Shown here piece by piece: positions 5,864-35,399 of a stretch of 64,000 nt of DNA. Positions within the stretch are counted from its first letter, which is position 1. The number at the start of each line of letters is the position of its first letter. The notes under the pieces are model-generated. The model was given only the letters and a program-made list of their open reading frames with translations, did not search any database and was not told the origin of the DNA. The stretch lies in the sequence record MT150133.1. One strand, written 5' to 3'. Made by a program: the position numbers and the translations under genes. This stretch comes from Enterobacteria phage vB_EcoM_IME540.

Positions 5864-6234
5864 GGATGATATGCCTTATAGGTTTCAAGAGTTCCTTCAC
5901 GAACCATTTCTTTAAAGTGGTCAGGACGGATTGCTCGGTCATCGATGATAAAAGTATAACTCGGCTTATGTGTAAGCAGATTGTGATATTTCAATCCAAT
6001 CTTTTCAAGGTTCTTAACTAATGCAGGAACTACTTCAACCAAGATTCGACCTGGGCCGCATGAAGTCATACCACGGGCAGTGAACAAGGTAATCTCGTAC
6101 CCTTCATCATAAAGCTTATTAATCACGGACACCATTTCGGTGTCCGGTTTAAAGTTTTCGTAATCACGGTCATCTTGCCAGTGAGTAATGGTATTATCGA
6201 TATCAAAACACAGATGCATTAAATTTTCTTCCAT
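5860..6234 (-). CDS. HAD-superfamily phosphatase (small, capless)
   Basis: all four HAD motifs: FDIDNT, LFTAR, HKPS, FIIDDR; alternative ATG at 6219 couples to upstream stop (TAATG). Confidence 0.65.
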   Translation of the reverse strand: MEENLMHLCFDIDNTITHWQDDRDYENFKPDTEMVSVINKLYDEGYEITLFTARGMTSCGPGRILVEVVPALVKNLEKIGLKYHNLLTHKPSYTFIIDDRAIRPDHFKEMVREGTLETYKAYHP

Positions 6235-7892
6235 TGTTTGTGGAGTTCGGTAGAACCTGTAGGTTTATATTTTACACCAGTTTCCTGGTCAAGCAAAACC
6301 CACTTATCAGGACAACGAGTGATAATTTGAGCCGTGATAGGGTCGCGAACTTCATCAACGAATTCACCTGTGATAAGCTTACGCTTACGAGGATGCCGCT
6401 TCAGCAGCACACTCAGTTGATATAGCCCATTGTAATAAGCGCCCAGAGCTTTCAGAGGGTTATTTTTAAAGTAACCTGCCAATGCCATCCAGATAACAGC
6501 AATCCAGAGCTTGTGCTTAAATGTACACATCGGAATATCATCTAAAGGCATAACCTTTTCAATATCAACGAATACACGAGTTCCGTTACGAGTTAAGCCA
6601 CCCCATAGAGGGTCAGAGTTAAATTTGTCATAACCATCGATAGAATAAAGCACCTTAGCTTCATCATAAATCGCAGGGCCTTTAGAACTATTACCAAAAT
6701 AACCACGTGGGTCGATGATTTTAATATTACCTTCGTCCGACAACATAATATTACTGTAGTGCGGGTCGCCATGAATAAGTTGGTACGGTTCTTTATGTTC
6801 AGACAGAATTTCTAAGGCGTGACGAAGAAGTTTTTCTGGGTCGCCTACCTTGAAGTCGTTAACATGGGTAATACCCTGTGGAGCAAAGCCTTCAATCAAT
6901 CCGGCAATAGAAGCATTACGAATAAGGACCTTGTCCAATACTTCTTTCTTAACATCAGAATACCATTGCTCATCGGATGGATTATCGATAGTTCCACCGA
7001 ATGAACGTAATGCACTAATGACCTTATAAACCATGAGGACTTTAGTTTCTTTAGACATAAACCGATAGGCGTCTGCCATGGTGCGACCAAAGATACGTTC
7101 CATTTTAATGAATTCACCTGGAGCAAAGTCTACAATGCTAGGAACGAATTCAGAATCAATAGAATTGTACCAATTGATTTCTTTAGATTGGATTTCTTTA
7201 CCTAATTCGTTTGTAGGTACTTTAATAGCTAGATTCTCAGTGAACTCTAATTTATTAAATTCACGGTTAATTTCAGAATCTTCATGGGCCTTAGCCAGTT
7301 TCAGTTTGTCACCAACATCAACTACAAAGTCTAACTTACGTTCAGTCAAATGGACCATTGAATCCAGGTTGTCAGCAAGGTCTTCACCATAATTAGAACG
7401 GTCGAAACCTGTCCAATTAGCCACCTGATACAAGCCAACTACGCCACCACCGGTACCAATTTCACGCAAGTACGGTTCTTCAAATGTAAAACGACAGTCA
7501 GTCCCATAGGTATAACAGTAGTCGTTATCCCACTCAACTTTATGACCTTCAGGAATAATATCACACCAGTTAAACAAGACATTGTGCCCAATGATATCTT
7601 CGGCAATGCAATCGATAGCATGAGCCGAACCATTGGCAACATCAACGTTACGAATAGTGAATTTAGGCTTATCACTATTAATCATGTTAATGGATTTAAT
7701 ATAGCCTTTAACGAGGTCGTTAAATTTGCTGTGAATAACCAGAATAATTTCATCTGATTGATTACTATACAAATCATACAAATGTTTTAATACAGTATGT
7801 TGTTTGTAGTTAACCAGTACCTTCGGGATTTCGTTGGTAATTGGATACAACCGTGAGCCAAGACCCGCGCCTAAAATAACAACCTTTTTCAT
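6219..7892 (-). CDS. bifunctional nucleotidyltransferase (N-terminal) / APH-ChoK-like kinase (C-terminal)
   Basis: N-terminus VVILGAGLGSRL (sugar-1-P/LicC-type NTase glycine loop); C-terminus LIHGDPHYSNIM...IIDPRGY (Brenner HGDxxxxN kinase motif); start trimmed to MKKVVILG with GAGGAA SD. Confidence 0.7.
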   Translation of the reverse strand: MKKVVILGAGLGSRLYPITNEIPKVLVNYKQHTVLKHLYDLYSNQSDEIILVIHSKFNDLVKGYIKSINMINSDKPKFTIRNVDVANGSAHAIDCIAEDIIGHNVLFNWCDIIPEGHKVEWDNDYCYTYGTDCRFTFEEPYLREIGTGGGVVGLYQVANWTGFDRSNYGEDLADNLDSMVHLTERKLDFVVDVGDKLKLAKAHEDSEINREFNKLEFTENLAIKVPTNELGKEIQSKEINWYNSIDSEFVPSIVDFAPGEFIKMERIFGRTMADAYRFMSKETKVLMVYKVISALRSFGGTIDNPSDEQWYSDVKKEVLDKVLIRNASIAGLIEGFAPQGITHVNDFKVGDPEKLLRHALEILSEHKEPYQLIHGDPHYSNIMLSDEGNIKIIDPRGYFGNSSKGPAIYDEAKVLYSIDGYDKFNSDPLWGGLTRNGTRVFVDIEKVMPLDDIPMCTFKHKLWIAVIWMALAGYFKNNPLKALGAYYNGLYQLSVLLKRHPRKRKLITGEFVDEVRDPITAQIITRCPDKWVLLDQETGVKYKPTGSTELHKQWKKI

Positions 7893-29616: not shown

Positions 29617-30597
29617 TTATTTCAGAAGTGTAACTTCAGAGATTTCACCCCAGTCATTTTTATCGGTGGCAATGAAATCCGCCAGATAAAGAGCTGTACG
29701 TAATGATACGTTACGAAGACGAGATACATTAGCCTTCATCCATGCTAAAGCTTGGTAAGTCTCGGCGTCAGTCAGACCACGGTTTTGCATCATATCAGTG
29801 GACAGGATAACGTCTTCAACACGAACCATAATCTCTTCGTTCGAGTGAACTCCGAGGTCTAAGTAAACTGAACGCGATACTAAAGCCTGGAGGTGTGGAG
29901 CAAGTTTAGTTCCACGCTCTAATTCACGGTCGATATCAACGTTGGTGATGAACACGATGGTGCCTTCGTATTCGAATTCTTTATCGATGTTTTTATCATC
30001 GAGATAAGAACTTGAAGTGCTCCAGCACACCTTACGTTTTTCACCGGTATCCAATGCCGCTTTCAGAAGGTTCAGGATATCCATATCAGAGAATACATCA
30101 ACATCATCGATAAGAAGAACACTATTAGGGCCGCGGTTATTCCAAAGCTGCTCGTAAAGACCGATTCCACTAATCTTTCCGTTGATTGATTTATATTCGA
30201 TAGTTTCATTTTCGTGGGCATTCTGTAATGCTTTATCCAAAGAATACGTTTTACCAATACCTGCGGCACCAGAGATGATAAGGGAACGAATTTTACCATC
30301 GATGATTCCGTTGGTCATCATGTTCATTACTTTAAAACGTTTGTTGATGCGATGTTTCATTTCTTCAGCGGATTCAGTAACAACTGCAGGAGCTTCAGCA
30401 CCTTCGGTTTCGATATCACATTTGAACACCCATACACCACGTTCAACACCATCAATCTGTACGAATACCTTGCCATCACCGAGGTGAGCTTCGGATTCAT
30501 GAATTTTATTAGGGAACCAGGTTTTACCTGAACTCATGAACGTACCAGAGATTACATTACCGCGATAGATACCTTTGTTGATTTTGATAGTTAACAT
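29617..30597 (-). CDS. P-loop NTPase (AAA-like), unknown function
   Basis: Walker A SGAAGIGKT and Walker B VLLIDDVD; start trimmed to MLTIKINKG with GGAGA SD. Confidence 0.55.
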   Translation of the reverse strand: MLTIKINKGIYRGNVISGTFMSSGKTWFPNKIHESEAHLGDGKVFVQIDGVERGVWVFKCDIETEGAEAPAVVTESAEEMKHRINKRFKVMNMMTNGIIDGKIRSLIISGAAGIGKTYSLDKALQNAHENETIEYKSINGKISGIGLYEQLWNNRGPNSVLLIDDVDVFSDMDILNLLKAALDTGEKRKVCWSTSSSYLDDKNIDKEFEYEGTIVFITNVDIDRELERGTKLAPHLQALVSRSVYLDLGVHSNEEIMVRVEDVILSTDMMQNRGLTDAETYQALAWMKANVSRLRNVSLRTALYLADFIATDKNDWGEISEVTLLK

Positions 30598-30634
30598 TAT
30601 ATTCTCCATTTCACTCAGTAGATTTGATAGGTCC

Positions 30635-30663
30635 ATAATAACATGCTCTACGAGAGTGTAAAC
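30635..30663 (-). promoter_or_regulatory. early promoter element (GTTTAC-N17-TATTAT)
   Basis: rc GTTTACACTCTCGTAGAGCATGTTATTAT. Confidence 0.5.
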
Positions 30664-30702
30664 TCTTTTTTGCACTAAACCCAAAAAGGAACCCGAAGGT
30701 TC

Positions 30703-30891
30703 CTAAATTGCATTCCAATAATTATGGAAGCGGATATTATTAATGGCCCACTCAACAAATCGTCTTATCTGTTTAGGCGTTGGTTTACATACGTACTTGA
30801 TATTGCCGCGGCGTCCAGTTTCTTTACATACTGCTTCAAGATACCATCGGCGAGTTTTATGAGGCCTTCCATATGATAAAAAGACCTTCAT
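30703..30891 (-). CDS. hypothetical basic protein (~62 aa)
   Basis: ORF-track start is TTG; trimmed to MKVFLSYGRPHKTRRW. Confidence 0.4.
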   Translation of the reverse strand: MKVFLSYGRPHKTRRWYLEAVCKETGRRGNIKYVCKPTPKQIRRFVEWAINNIRFHNYWNAI

Positions 30892-30898
30892 TTCTTCG

Positions 30899-31909
30899 TT
30901 ATCGATAATAAGCGTTGTGATTGTCAAGGTATACCTCTTCAACAAACTTGTCCCAGAACTTCATATCTACCTTCTCAGGCATACCGTTCTTAGCAGCCTG
31001 GATGGCTAGGACTTCAACCAAATCAACAGTATCTTCAAGAAGTTCTTGAACTTCTTTAAATGGTAATTCACCGGCTTTAATAAGCTTAATGATAGAGGCT
31101 TCGCGCAATGGGAACACCAGGTCGCCTGTTTGGTAGATTTCCAACAATTGATACCCTGCGCGATAAGCATGGCTCAGAGCTTTCCAGTCAATACCTTCGT
31201 TAGCTTCAGCTTTACGGGCCCGTTCACCATATTCCGCATCGAGCTTATTCAGAGATTGCTTGAGCTCGATTAAAGATAAAGTAGTTTGGTACTTACGTCC
31301 GAGAACAGTATAGAACGTTTGAGGGCCTGTTTTCTCATGGTTATGGAATACCCATTCACAGAACTCGTTTTCAGGGAGTCGATGTTTAATATCTTCTACA
31401 CGAGTACGACGTTGCTTAGTCGAACCATCTTCTTGATAATCGACCCACTGTTCAGGAATCTGGTTGACTATTGCCAATACACCACGCAGAGCAGCCAGAC
31501 GAGAACCCTTAACACCATATTTAGAAGCTTGCTTGCGGACGTACCCTAAATAGGCTTTCATGTTGGTTGTATAGAACCGTGAACGGTTGTCTTGGATAAA
31601 TTTCCATACATCAGGTAAATCAGATTTAACCACCATTTCGGGTGGAGTGTGGAGCATATCCAGAGCAACGGTTTCGCCATCAGCAGCCAGTTTAAAGAAA
31701 TATTTCAGGCTATAAAGCTCATGGTCAACATCATCTTTAGTGTTTTTGGAAGCAGTGTTATTCGTGTTCAGGTTGGTATGGTTCATAGCCGTACCTAACA
31801 GAATATCACGCGGATGCGGAACAAAGATTTCTTTAAAATCGACATCAGATTCCGGAGTACTTGTTCCATAAAGGTGGCTACCGAAGTAGCCCTTCATAAT
31901 TGTTCTCAT
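30899..31909 (-). CDS. nucleotidyltransferase-fold protein (Pol-beta superfamily-like), unknown function
   Basis: GSHLYGTSTPESDVDF fits the minimal NTase GS-x(9-13)-DxD signature; ORF-track start is GTG, ATG candidates at 31909 and 31897. Confidence 0.5.
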   Translation of the reverse strand: MRTIMKGYFGSHLYGTSTPESDVDFKEIFVPHPRDILLGTAMNHTNLNTNNTASKNTKDDVDHELYSLKYFFKLAADGETVALDMLHTPPEMVVKSDLPDVWKFIQDNRSRFYTTNMKAYLGYVRKQASKYGVKGSRLAALRGVLAIVNQIPEQWVDYQEDGSTKQRRTRVEDIKHRLPENEFCEWVFHNHEKTGPQTFYTVLGRKYQTTLSLIELKQSLNKLDAEYGERARKAEANEGIDWKALSHAYRAGYQLLEIYQTGDLVFPLREASIIKLIKAGELPFKEVQELLEDTVDLVEVLAIQAAKNGMPEKVDMKFWDKFVEEVYLDNHNAYYR

Positions 31910-32364
31910 TCTTTGTTCTCGAAGTGGATTACAGGACACATCTTAGATTTACGAGCTTTAATGTATTGAATAACGATATTTTCTTTAATTTCCTTTCCTT
32001 CACGTTTAGCTTTAATTAGTTGCCATTCCTTTTCTTCTTTACGTAAATCATACCAGGACCATAAATTCATTAGGCCATACATTAAACCAACGGCTACCGC
32101 TAGAATAAGAGCCAGTGTAACCAGTCCTAAAATAAAACCTAAACTTAAACCAACAGGAGTACTCAATACAAAGAACTGCTCCAATATACCGGCACCTGCA
32201 ACAGTTAAGCCGAAAATAGTACTACCTGCAAGCACAGAACATATAAAGCACACCCAAACCATTTTCCAGAAGTAAGCACACAAAGAGTGTGGTCGAGAAT
32301 GACGGTCATAAAAACGGTCATGAAGTTTAGCGTGCCAAGAGTTTGCATTGATAATCATAATCAT
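31906..32364 (-). CDS. membrane protein (152 aa)
   Basis: two long hydrophobic helices, charged C-terminus. Confidence 0.5.
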   Translation of the reverse strand: MIMIINANSWHAKLHDRFYDRHSRPHSLCAYFWKMVWVCFICSVLAGSTIFGLTVAGAGILEQFFVLSTPVGLSLGFILGLVTLALILAVAVGLMYGLMNLWSWYDLRKEEKEWQLIKAKREGKEIKENIVIQYIKARKSKMCPVIHFENKE

Positions 32365-32374
32365 AATATTTTCC

Positions 32375-32935
32375 TTAAGAGTTCATAGTTGGGATAACAG
32401 AGTTCAGATAAGAGACTAAAACTTTTAGTTCGTCTTTAGTAAATACCACTTCACTTTCACCATCGTGTCTTTGGGTCAAGGATAGCAAATCACGACCCTG
32501 ATATTGATACACGGTTAATTCAGTATCATAATCCAGTTCTTCTTCGTCGCCTTCAAATGTTTCACTAGAGCGAATTACAGCATCTTGGCCAGGGACTTTC
32601 CATTCGACTTCTGGCTTGCATTCTTCCTGGAACAGTTTGAAAATACAATCAAAGAATTTATCAGAATCGCTGATGCTCAGACATTCAATACCATTTTCCA
32701 GATTAAACCCAGTTTCATTTTTATAGATATAGGCAAACACATCATCATTGATATCGATAGGAGCCCTATGTCGACCGTTAAGATAATCATGTCTATCTAA
32801 AACCATTAAATCATAAAGCGGTTTAATATCAGCGATAGTCAGTACGATTTTATCGTCTTCTTGTGAAAGCTCAATTGCGTTATTAACTACTTCAGCGGAC
32901 AGTTCGCCAAACAATTCAGTTGTTTCAATAATCAT
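32375..32935 (-). CDS. hypothetical acidic protein (186 aa)
   Basis: coding-strand ORF. Confidence 0.5.
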   Translation of the reverse strand: MIIETTELFGELSAEVVNNAIELSQEDDKIVLTIADIKPLYDLMVLDRHDYLNGRHRAPIDINDDVFAYIYKNETGFNLENGIECLSISDSDKFFDCIFKLFQEECKPEVEWKVPGQDAVIRSSETFEGDEEELDYDTELTVYQYQGRDLLSLTQRHDGESEVVFTKDELKVLVSYLNSVIPTMNS

Positions 32936-32945
32936 TTTCTATTCC

Positions 32946-33212
32946 TCAACGGTTATGTTTTAAAATACTATAAAGCTCTTCGACTTGGTCTGCATTCAGA
33001 CAAATCATATCATTTTCTTGTTGGAGCGTAATTCCACCTTTTTCTTCCCAATCTTTAACAAAGACGTCATCGTCAGATTCTTCAACATCTGCTAAAAGGA
33101 CAATCACACCATCTTCAGAACAACCATTTGGGTCATATAACATTACAGTTTCCTCGCTAACCATGAAAAGAATAAACCAATTAAAACAGGCCCTACAGCC
33201 ATTGTTAACCAA
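32946..33212 (-). CDS. hypothetical protein (88 aa; TTG start in ORF track)
   Basis: coding-strand ORF; likely begins at internal MLYDPNG. Confidence 0.4.
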   Translation of the reverse strand: MVNNGCRACFNWFILFMVSEETVMLYDPNGCSEDGVIVLLADVEESDDDVFVKDWEEKGGITLQQENDMICLNADQVEELYSILKHNR

Positions 33213-34826: not shown

Positions 34827-35399
34827 TCAACTCGTTATTTCTATCCAGTGCTTCCTGCACAATGACACGTAAGAATCGTTGCCACCTATAGAAACTTGGG
34901 CTCCGTCCTTAATTGCGATACCATCTTGGATACGAGCCGTCATAGTAGCTTTACGGCCGCAATGGCACACACCTTTGTACTCAACGAGTTTATCTGCCGT
35001 AGCGAGTAATTCAGCAGAGCCAGGAAACAGTTTACCCTGAAAATCAGTTCTTAGCCCATAACACATAACTGGAACATTATAATTGTCTACTATCTTCGCC
35101 AGTTGTTTTATCTGTGCAGGTTCTAAGAACTGTGCTTCATCCACAAATACACAGTGGATATCTTTTTGAGATTCAGCCCAACGATAGAACTCGTATAGGT
35201 CCATATCCGGAGTCACGGCATTAGCCTCTTGACTAATCCCTATACGAGACGAAATGCTATGGCTTGATTCTCTATTGTCTACCGCGGGCTTTAAAAGGAG
35301 TACGCCCATACCACGTTCTTTGTAGTTATGAGCTGCCGTTAGCAATGAAGCGGTTTTCCCGGAATTCATCGCCGCATAGTGAAACATCAAGCTTGCCAT
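34827..35399 (-). CDS. tk: thymidine kinase
   Basis: 190 aa; P-loop YAAMNSGKT and C-terminal Cys cluster typical of type II TK; syntenic with T4 tk. Confidence 0.9.
   Translation of the reverse strand: MASLMFHYAAMNSGKTASLLTAAHNYKERGMGVLLLKPAVDNRESSHSISSRIGISQEANAVTPDMDLYEFYRWAESQKDIHCVFVDEAQFLEPAQIKQLAKIVDNYNVPVMCYGLRTDFQGKLFPGSAELLATADKLVEYKGVCHCGRKATMTARIQDGIAIKDGAQVSIGGNDSYVSLCRKHWIEITS

Follow-up and report, generated by a model that had tools for sequence, protein, structure and literature searches.

A T4 NrdC.11 ortholog from a Dhakavirus-type phage belongs to the RlaP family of nucleotidyltransferases and may act in RNA repair

Which reaction is carried out by a predicted nucleotidyltransferase that T4-like phages encode between nrdC and tk, and on which substrate? 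We addressed this question for a minus-strand gene of Enterobacteria phage vB_EcoM_IME540 (MT150133.1), located on a stretch of 64,000 nucleotides of this record, which we refer to as the window. The initial annotation, made from the sequence alone, had described the open reading frame (ORF) 30899-31939 in the nrdC-tk accessory region as a protein with a Pol-beta-superfamily nucleotidyltransferase fold and of unknown role, based on an N-terminal GS-x10-DVD signature, and had offered nucleotide signaling, anti-defense or RNA modification as its function. We conclude that the gene is the Dhakavirus ortholog of T4 nrdC.11 and that its product is a member of the RlaP family, i.e. the RNA-ligase-associated Pol-beta nucleotidyltransferases (PF10127). 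Beyond this, we consider it rather likely that NrdC.11 is a template-independent RNA 3'-end nucleotidyltransferase, which would act before ligation in phage RNA repair. The repair of tRNA in T4-infected cells, in which Pnk and Rnl1 counter the nuclease PrrC, is the textbook example of a phage reversing RNA damage caused by its host, and RloC-type nucleases have been proposed to defeat this repair by also removing the wobble nucleotide.

In a megablast search, the region 30000..33000 matched hundreds of T4-like phages with best identities of 93-94%, including Dhakavirus vB_EcoM_IME281 and QL01, and with 92% identity for Bp7; the window derives from a Dhakavirus-type relative of T4. The protein is 100% identical to the protein deposited for vB_EcoM_IME540 in GenBank and 99% identical to NrdC.11 of Bp7, and it aligns without gaps over all 336 residues to T4 NrdC.11 (NP_049709.1, RefSeq product "nucleotidyltransferase") with 82% identity. 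It passes the threshold of PF10127 (RlaP, "RNA repair pathway DNA polymerase beta family") with 45 bits at a gathering cutoff of 23 (E = 1.4e-11) and matches PHROG 388, "nucleotidyltransferase", from end to end (E = 1e-133). A precomputed PF10127 match was carried by every homolog listed. An exhaustive HMMER search over 1.84 billion cluster representatives revealed relatives in 3351 clusters (50% identity) at E ≤ 0.001 and in 845 clusters at E ≤ 1e-30, most of which are 305-345 amino acids long and align over their full length; with such matches, the ORF is clearly no chance occurrence. The protein, its T4 ortholog, the family and the predicted role are all already present in databases or in the literature, and the gene is of a known kind; the description "of unknown role" is out of date, since the literature contains a predicted role for RlaP and also names the T4 ortholog. 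Many NrdC.11 homologs in GenBank and UniRef are labeled "thioredoxin", apparently derived from the gene name nrdC.11, and single homologs are labeled "putative HNH homing endonuclease" or "ArsR family regulator", all of which are annotation errors.

The GS-x10-DVD signature is present in its exact form, residues 10-24 reading G10-S11-HLYGTSTPES-D22-V-D24. We followed its conservation in alignments of 31 T4-like sequences (A1), of 40 diverse representatives with 35-51% identity taken from the unbiased HMMER search (A2), and of 75 sequences (A3). Residues G10, S11, S21, D22, D24, G78, Y131, R230, W242, K243, H247, R250, P267 and G280 are invariant in A2, and D60, D62, D84, K26, N56, Y123, Q127, K130 and others are conserved in at least 90% of its sequences. 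About 150 further members from bacterial, archaeal and viral contigs kept the catalytic residues almost without exception and had S or A at position 11, and of all full-length sequences in these sets only one deviates at G10, D22 or D24; the set of about 150 was retrieved with peptide patterns including DWK..HAxR, and the conservation of residues 241-250 is therefore partly built into it, whereas A2 is unbiased in this respect. The third catalytic carboxylate is probably D62, which is invariant in A3, at least 90% conserved in A2 and an aspartate in 148/150 members. T4 NrdC.11 keeps D62 but deviates at position 60, with N in place of the D of nearly all relatives. In the T4 reference protein (NC_000866 55435..56445; L165:3436-4446 among our loci), residue 101 is ambiguous (X).

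For a comparison with canonical RlaP, we used an alignment of 14 bacterial proteins of 255-278 amino acids (A4), each of which is encoded next to an NrdC.11-type gene; the one canonical protein that was scanned, from locus L045, matched PF10127 with 246 bits. In a profile-profile comparison with hhalign, residues 4-90 aligned to canonical RlaP (E = 3e-5, probability 72%), with the GS pair on SG, D22/D24 on the DYD motif, D62 on the invariant Asp of "LDxNGWD" and D84 on the invariant Glu of "EW". The Pol-beta signature (G[SA] turn, DxD, third acidic residue located on a later strand) is found in NrdC.11 and corresponds to SG, DxD and LDxNGWD of canonical RlaP. Sequence searches of the Protein Data Bank (PDB) with the protein, the A2 family profile and the canonical A4 profile returned nothing relevant.

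The AlphaFold2 model built from A3 reached a mean predicted local distance difference test score (pLDDT) of 87.6 and a predicted template modeling score of 0.71. In this model, strand 2-9 leads into the GS turn, D22 and D24 are placed where strand 23-30 begins, and strand 61-67 carries D62. A Foldseek search against the PDB gave modest E-values (0.01 or higher), and its top matches were consistently nucleotidyltransferases, namely 3c18, Hailong HalB, the kanamycin nucleotidyltransferase ANT(4'), LinB, MNT antitoxin and Tam41. The protein is predicted to combine a Pol-beta-type nucleotidyltransferase fold with a helical domain, as in kanamycin nucleotidyltransferase. A first model based on A1 had pLDDT values below 50 at residues 1-29, 48-66 and 82-85, which include the catalytic motif, gave meaningless Foldseek matches and was replaced. 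The superfamily assignment and the signature given in the initial annotation are confirmed by these results: the motif is conserved in the homologs, the predicted fold is that of a nucleotidyltransferase and not a different one, and both PF10127 and PHROG 388 are matched.

Outside the catalytic core, the segment comprising residues 96-139 is the most conserved region of A1 (91% mean pairwise identity) and may bind substrate or triphosphate, while the conserved block of residues 229-250 in the C-terminal domain, ERARKAEANEGIDWKALSHAYR, may act in RNA or nucleoside triphosphate (NTP) binding. The least conserved part of the protein is the beta-rich insert of residues 140-212, with a mean pairwise identity of 55% vs 80-91% in its flanks among T4-like sequences and of 18% vs 42-44% in the diverse set; its length, counted between positions 139 and 213, is 53-78 amino acids in all subfamily members. 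Among T4-like proteins that are otherwise 80-90% identical, the insert falls into at least three sharply distinct sequence types in A1, and some of these proteins pair one insert type with another type of C-terminus. The variation looks like the result of recombination or diversifying selection, and the hypervariable insert could contribute to substrate recognition.

Next to family and fold, the genomic context of NrdC.11-type genes is informative. Loci were collected from one genome per species and from IMG/VR viral contigs, ORFs were called, neighbors were clustered, and cluster profiles were built, the identities of which were checked by Pfam. In raw counts, at least one RNA-repair neighbor (canonical RlaP, RtcB, the Ro60-like TROVE protein Rsr, Pnkp or Hen1) was found in 32 of the 72 bacterial or archaeal loci, and an Rnl1-type RNA ligase, RtcB, an HD-domain protein or an HD-kinase lay nearby in 14 of the 33 viral loci with less than 49% identity. 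Representative gene orders are Rsr - x - RtcB - x - NrdC.11-like - RlaP - Hen1 (L034), Hen1 - Pnkp - NrdC.11-like - RlaP (L070), RtcB - NrdC.11-like - RlaP (L072), Pnkp - NrdC.11-like (L059), kinase - HD/kinase - Rnl1 - NrdC.11-like (L155) and NrdC.11-like - HD - ... - RtcB (L152 and L154). That RNA-repair genes of all three known system types are found right next to NrdC.11-type genes, and on the same strand, can hardly be put down to chance. In viral loci L152, L154, L141, L149, L157 and L159 and in genome contigs L023 and L061, the NrdC.11-type gene is directly followed, with an overlap, by a gene for a small HD-domain protein (about 171-177 amino acids), which may be a partner acting as an RNA end-healing phosphoesterase. 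The context of one distant homolog (L002) was uninformative.

A biochemical framework is provided by a preprint of December 2025, in which RlaP of P. fluorescens (PfRlaP) and of P. aeruginosa (PaRlaP) labeled only RNA among E. coli macromolecules, and added one or two nucleoside monophosphates (NMP), as well as deoxynucleoside monophosphates, to RNA 3'-OH ends but not to 3'-phosphate ends or to DNA, with a preference for Mn2+ or Co2+ (PMC12776372). Both enzymes favor the 5' half of a nicked tRNA mimic, and a tRNA with one anticodon-loop nucleotide missing was aminoacylated to a higher level after repair with RlaP (PMC12776372). The crystal structure comprises an N-terminal nucleotidyltransferase domain and a C-terminal helical domain, and RlaP was proposed as an antidote to "smart" ribotoxins such as RloC (PMC12776372). 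According to an earlier study, the occurrence of RlaP across jumbo phages follows that of RNA ligases (Iyer et al. 2021, PMC7824862), and RlaP was predicted to replace, ahead of ligation, the nucleotides that RloC-like action has taken away (PMC7824862).

Transferred to NrdC.11, this suggests the following model. The N-terminal domain would move NMP from NTP to an RNA 3'-OH, with the G10-S11 turn and with two divalent metals, probably Mn2+, coordinated by D22, D24 and D62, and the addition would be limited to one or two nucleotides and would proceed without a template. During infection, the substrate could be tRNA, or another RNA, from which a host anticodon nuclease such as RloC has taken a nucleotide in addition to cutting it. 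Pnk would strip the 3' phosphate, NrdC.11 would restore a nucleotide and Rnl1 would seal the ends, by which some functional tRNA would be recovered. What the present analysis contributes to this model is the N-terminal family membership, the conservation of the catalytic residues, the predicted fold and the occurrence of the subfamily in RNA-repair operons; that the phage enzyme has the same activity and that nuclease-damaged tRNA is its natural substrate, we infer. Since nrdC.11-mobD.3 is one of the T4 segments that viable genome-reduced mutants can lose (PMC9825161), nrdC.11 is dispensable in the laboratory host, as expected of an accessory counter-defense gene.

Several observations weigh against this model. 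The Pfam match is confined to residues 7-134, corresponding to profile positions 24-142 of 249, and the hhalign alignment of the C-terminal halves is not significant (E 0.12-0.18); its best path, which is not significant either, sets DWKALSHAxR on KxYxYALR, the two sharing a K-x3-[HY]-x2-R spacing by eye. NrdC.11-type proteins are about 60-80 amino acids longer than canonical RlaP and contain the hypervariable beta-rich insert, which is absent from the latter. The measured RlaP activity is that of cluster 1a enzymes only, whereas T4 NrdC.11 falls into PF10127 cluster 5, apart from the tested cluster (PMC12776372). The published repair model itself has gaps, as an untemplated addition would lead to the wrong nucleotide in most products (PMC12776372). 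With respect to context, the counts of 32/72 and 14/33 are raw and come without a formal background control. The association with RNA ligase or repair genes holds for the subfamily and not locally, no RNA-repair gene being adjacent to nrdC.11 in the window or in any of 45 T4-like loci; Bp7, the nearest annotated phage, does encode both repair genes elsewhere in its genome (rnlA at 99273-100421, pseT at 102076-102984), which counts in favor of the model. Finally, canonical RlaP is encoded in 23 of the 72 bacterial or archaeal loci, in about 20 of them as the direct same-strand neighbor, mostly downstream and in many cases with an overlap, which argues that the two proteins are not functionally identical.

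Because both types occur side by side in these approximately 20 bacterial loci, NrdC.11-type proteins and canonical RlaP are best described as paralogous subfamilies, which probably have different jobs. Tandems of an NrdC.11-type gene followed by a canonical rlaP gene (about 255-278 amino acids) were seen in L010, L013, L020, L045, L058, L063, L070, L072, L075, L077, L082 and others, around positions 6000-7800 of the loci, and the catalytic residues are kept in both proteins of a pair. This arrangement suggests that two nucleotidyltransferases form a module in RNA-repair operons of bacteria. It is conceivable, though we hold it with clearly less confidence than the activity itself, that NrdC.11-type proteins form a functionally distinct RlaP clade in which the insert would recognize a particular damaged end, in which the bacterial members would be obligate partners of canonical RlaP, e.g. 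as a heterodimer or in successive additions, and in which the phage members would be an overlooked third enzyme of Pnk/Rnl1 repair that defeats RloC-type nucleases. The specialized clade and the two-enzyme arrangement are put forward here; a role in repair had been published as a proposal before. A distinct insert-bearing subfamily, bacterial RlaP tandems and an occurrence in RtcB, Pnkp/Hen1 and Rnl1 cassettes alike may not have been described before, the original 2016 RlaP paper standing outside this comparison.

Other explanations have to be weighed against a role before ligation. An RNA 3'-end nucleotidyltransferase could have a different job, namely to rebuild damaged 3'-CCA ends of tRNAs or to tail host or phage RNAs and alter their stability or translation, a reading we regard as unlikely. 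It would agree with nrdC.11 being unlinked to rnlA or pseT in T4-like phages, with the presence of phage tRNA genes in the window, and with the labeling of rRNA-sized and full-length tRNA-sized species in total E. coli RNA by the tested RlaP enzymes, which have little NTP specificity (PMC12776372). However, the operons in which the subfamily resides are dedicated to RNA repair and also encode ligases and end-healing enzymes, and this speaks for a step preceding ligation. Concerning CCA addition, T4 needs the host CCA-adding enzyme for some tRNAs, which counts against such an activity in the phage, and the PolyA_pol head domain of class II CCA-adding enzymes and poly(A) polymerases was absent from the Pfam matches at E ≤ 1.

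The fold that NrdC.11 has in common with kanamycin nucleotidyltransferase and MNT proteins would also be suited for the nucleotidylylation of a protein or small molecule, in analogy to MNT antitoxins AMPylating HEPN toxins or kanamycin nucleotidyltransferase acting on aminoglycosides, and might switch off a host defense protein. We consider this improbable: the match to the NCBIfam equivalog of MntA (type VII toxin-antitoxin systems) is limited to the GS..D motif region and reaches 15.3 bits at a cutoff of 60, no Rx4-6H HEPN motif was seen in the helical domain when the sequence was read by eye, no HEPN match was found by Pfam in the neighboring window ORFs that were scanned, proteins were not labeled by bacterial RlaP (PMC12776372), and the conserved neighbors are RNA ligases and RNA end-healing enzymes rather than toxins. 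Least likely, and in our view highly improbable, is the synthesis of a nucleotide or oligonucleotide signal, as by CD-NTases or by Hailong HalB, which makes oligodeoxyadenylate, with the phage copy mimicking or disturbing a host immune signal. The similarity to such enzymes is restricted to the generic nucleotidyltransferase core, at 12-14% identity; HalB was not detected by HMMER profile searches even at E = 10; neither CD-NTase (SMODS) profiles nor the PADLOC models of cyclases from cyclic-oligonucleotide-based anti-phage signaling systems (CBASS) were matched in Pfam and PADLOC searches, PADLOC and NCBIfam giving motif-level noise only; and the neighborhoods contain no recurring signaling partner or effector-like gene. 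Among the roles offered initially, an RNA-modifying enzyme and an anti-defense function therefore fit best with the RlaP family and the RNA-repair operons, and nucleotide signaling is unsupported.

The features of the locus are compiled in Table 1. The maximal ORF exists at the coordinates given initially and encodes 346 amino acids from a GTG at 31939; its start has to be revised. All homologs, 31/31 close and 40/40 distant ones, open at the position equivalent to 31909 with MKT or MRT, and the ATG at this position overlaps the TGA stop codon of the upstream 152-amino-acid ORF as ATGA, which is why we take this ATG as the start. The protein almost certainly comprises 336 amino acids, and the overlap suggests translational coupling of the predicted membrane-protein ORF and nrdC.11. 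The gene sits within a long co-directional gene run, and its location in the nrdC-tk region is borne out by synteny with Bp7 and T4, where the order nrdC ... nrdC.10 - nrdC.11 - (mobD in T4, the membrane-protein ORF here) - mobD.1 ... tk is conserved.

Between nrdC.11 and nrdC.10, and separate from the enzyme, lies a small DUF7279 ORF, for which the ATG start is more likely than the TTG start, the former being located 8 nucleotides past the nrdC.11 stop codon and the latter overlapping the 3' end of nrdC.11. This ORF is missing in Bp7, where the gap between nrdC.10 and nrdC.11 is only about 30 bp and the match covers 93% of the query in two pieces; in vB_EcoM-E33, a homing endonuclease is annotated inside the matched interval, which exceeds the query by about 1.1 kb. 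Because of these two cases, the surroundings of nrdC.11 look like an insertion hot spot. A terminator-like hairpin directly after the DUF7279 ORF is the probable 3' end of the transcription unit holding nrdC.11, although the consensus scan for promoters and terminators returned no more sites than in shuffled controls. The sigma-70-like site just downstream of this hairpin, if real, lies downstream of the TTG start listed for nrdC.10, and the start codon of nrdC.10 is therefore uncertain. The N-terminal approximately 110 residues of NrdC.10 are uncharacterized. Both nrdC.10 and the upstream membrane-protein ORF were considered as functional partners and rejected, as they co-occur with nrdC.11 essentially only in T4-like phages; among 48 loci with less than 62% identity, they were found in one and four, respectively. 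The window contains only two tRNA genes, both on the minus strand.

Table 1 Features of the nrdC.11 locus of vB_EcoM_IME540 in window coordinates.
Feature	Position	Strand	Description	Basis
nrdC.11 ortholog	30899..31909	minus	336 amino acids plus stop codon (30899..30901); RlaP-family (PF10127) nucleotidyltransferase	ORF list, sequence, Pfam/PHROG
In-frame 5' extension of maximal ORF	31910..31939	minus	Inside upstream gene; probably untranslated	
N-terminal minimal nucleotidyltransferase domain	31625..31909	minus	Residues 1-95: strand 2-9, GS turn, strand 23-30, strand 61-67, helices 68-86	
GS-x10-DVD catalytic motif	31838..31882	minus	G10, S11 ... D22, V23, D24; invariant in A1-A3	Direct sequence reading
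D62, probable third catalytic carboxylate	31724..31726	minus	On strand 61-67	Conservation, hhalign
Helical segment	31493..31624	minus	Residues 96-139, with conserved block GYVRKQAxKYGVKGSRL (Y123, Q127, K130, Y131, G135, R137)	
Beta-rich insert	31274..31492	minus	Residues 140-212; strands 154-158, 164-168, 184-191, 195-202, 205-208	Model
C-terminal helical domain	30902..31273	minus	Residues 213-336; resembles HEPN or the C-terminal domain of kanamycin nucleotidyltransferase	
Conserved C-terminal motif	31160..31225	minus	Residues 229-250 (R230, D241, W242, K243, H247, R250)	A2, high conservation score
Upstream predicted membrane-protein ORF	31906..32364	minus	152 amino acids; fills the slot of the mobD homing endonuclease in T4	
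DUF7279 ORF, 3' of nrdC.11	30703..30891	minus	About 62 amino acids from ATG 30891; or 80 amino acids from TTG 30945 (30703..30945)	Pfam PF23945, 41 bits
Terminator-like hairpin	30687..30704	minus	C(UUCG)G tetraloop hairpin, then T-run	Consensus scan only
Sigma-70-like site	30635..30662	minus	10/12 positions plus extended -10 TG	Consensus match only
nrdC.10	29617..30684	minus	P-loop NTPase, Walker A GAAGIGKT	Sub-threshold AAA_14, AAA_22 and STAND-type Pfam matches only
tk	34827..35399			ORF list
tRNA-Arg(TCT)	50953..51027	minus		
tRNA-Met(CAT)	51740..51810	minus		

If NrdC.11 does restore a lost nucleotide, this would close the loop of the arms race between tRNA-cleaving hosts and tRNA-repairing phages and a pathway long regarded as the work of two enzymes would gain a third. 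The gene is very widespread in phages, bacteria and archaea (about 3350 clusters at 50% identity), and a function established by experiment would moreover correct many database labels, such as "thioredoxin".

Compared with known systems, NrdC.11 of the window is closest to T4 NrdC.11, which occupies the same slot downstream of mobD.1, upstream of nrdC.10 and between nrdC and tk, and has the same catalytic motif; T4 differs in having mobD directly upstream, where the window has the membrane-protein ORF, and only the window has the extra DUF7279 ORF downstream. Canonical RlaP (cluster 1a, from P. fluorescens and P. aeruginosa; PMC12776372) resembles NrdC.11-type proteins in its homologous N-terminal nucleotidyltransferase domain with three conserved acidic residues, in the layout of this domain plus a C-terminal helical domain, whose sequences do not align significantly between the two, and in the association of both with RtcB, Pnkp or RNA-ligase operons. 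The structural relatives are more distant. ANT(4') and 3c18 have about 10% identity and template modeling scores of 0.25-0.3, and the substrates of ANT(4') are aminoglycosides, whereas NrdC.11 has no resistance context. Hailong HalB (9dbh, 9dbj) is an oligodeoxyadenylate synthase of 217 amino acids that works with the HalA channel; the structural match covers only 117 residues, no similarity to NrdC.11 is detectable at the sequence level, and no gene for a HalA-like partner is present. The pathway proposed for NrdC.11 is the tRNA repair of T4, in which Pnk (PseT) and Rnl1 (RnlA) act against PrrC, and Bp7 encodes both pseT and rnlA. The classical pathway consists of these two enzymes without NrdC.11, and the repair of a simple PrrC cut does not need it; NrdC.11 would become relevant only after the loss of a nucleotide.

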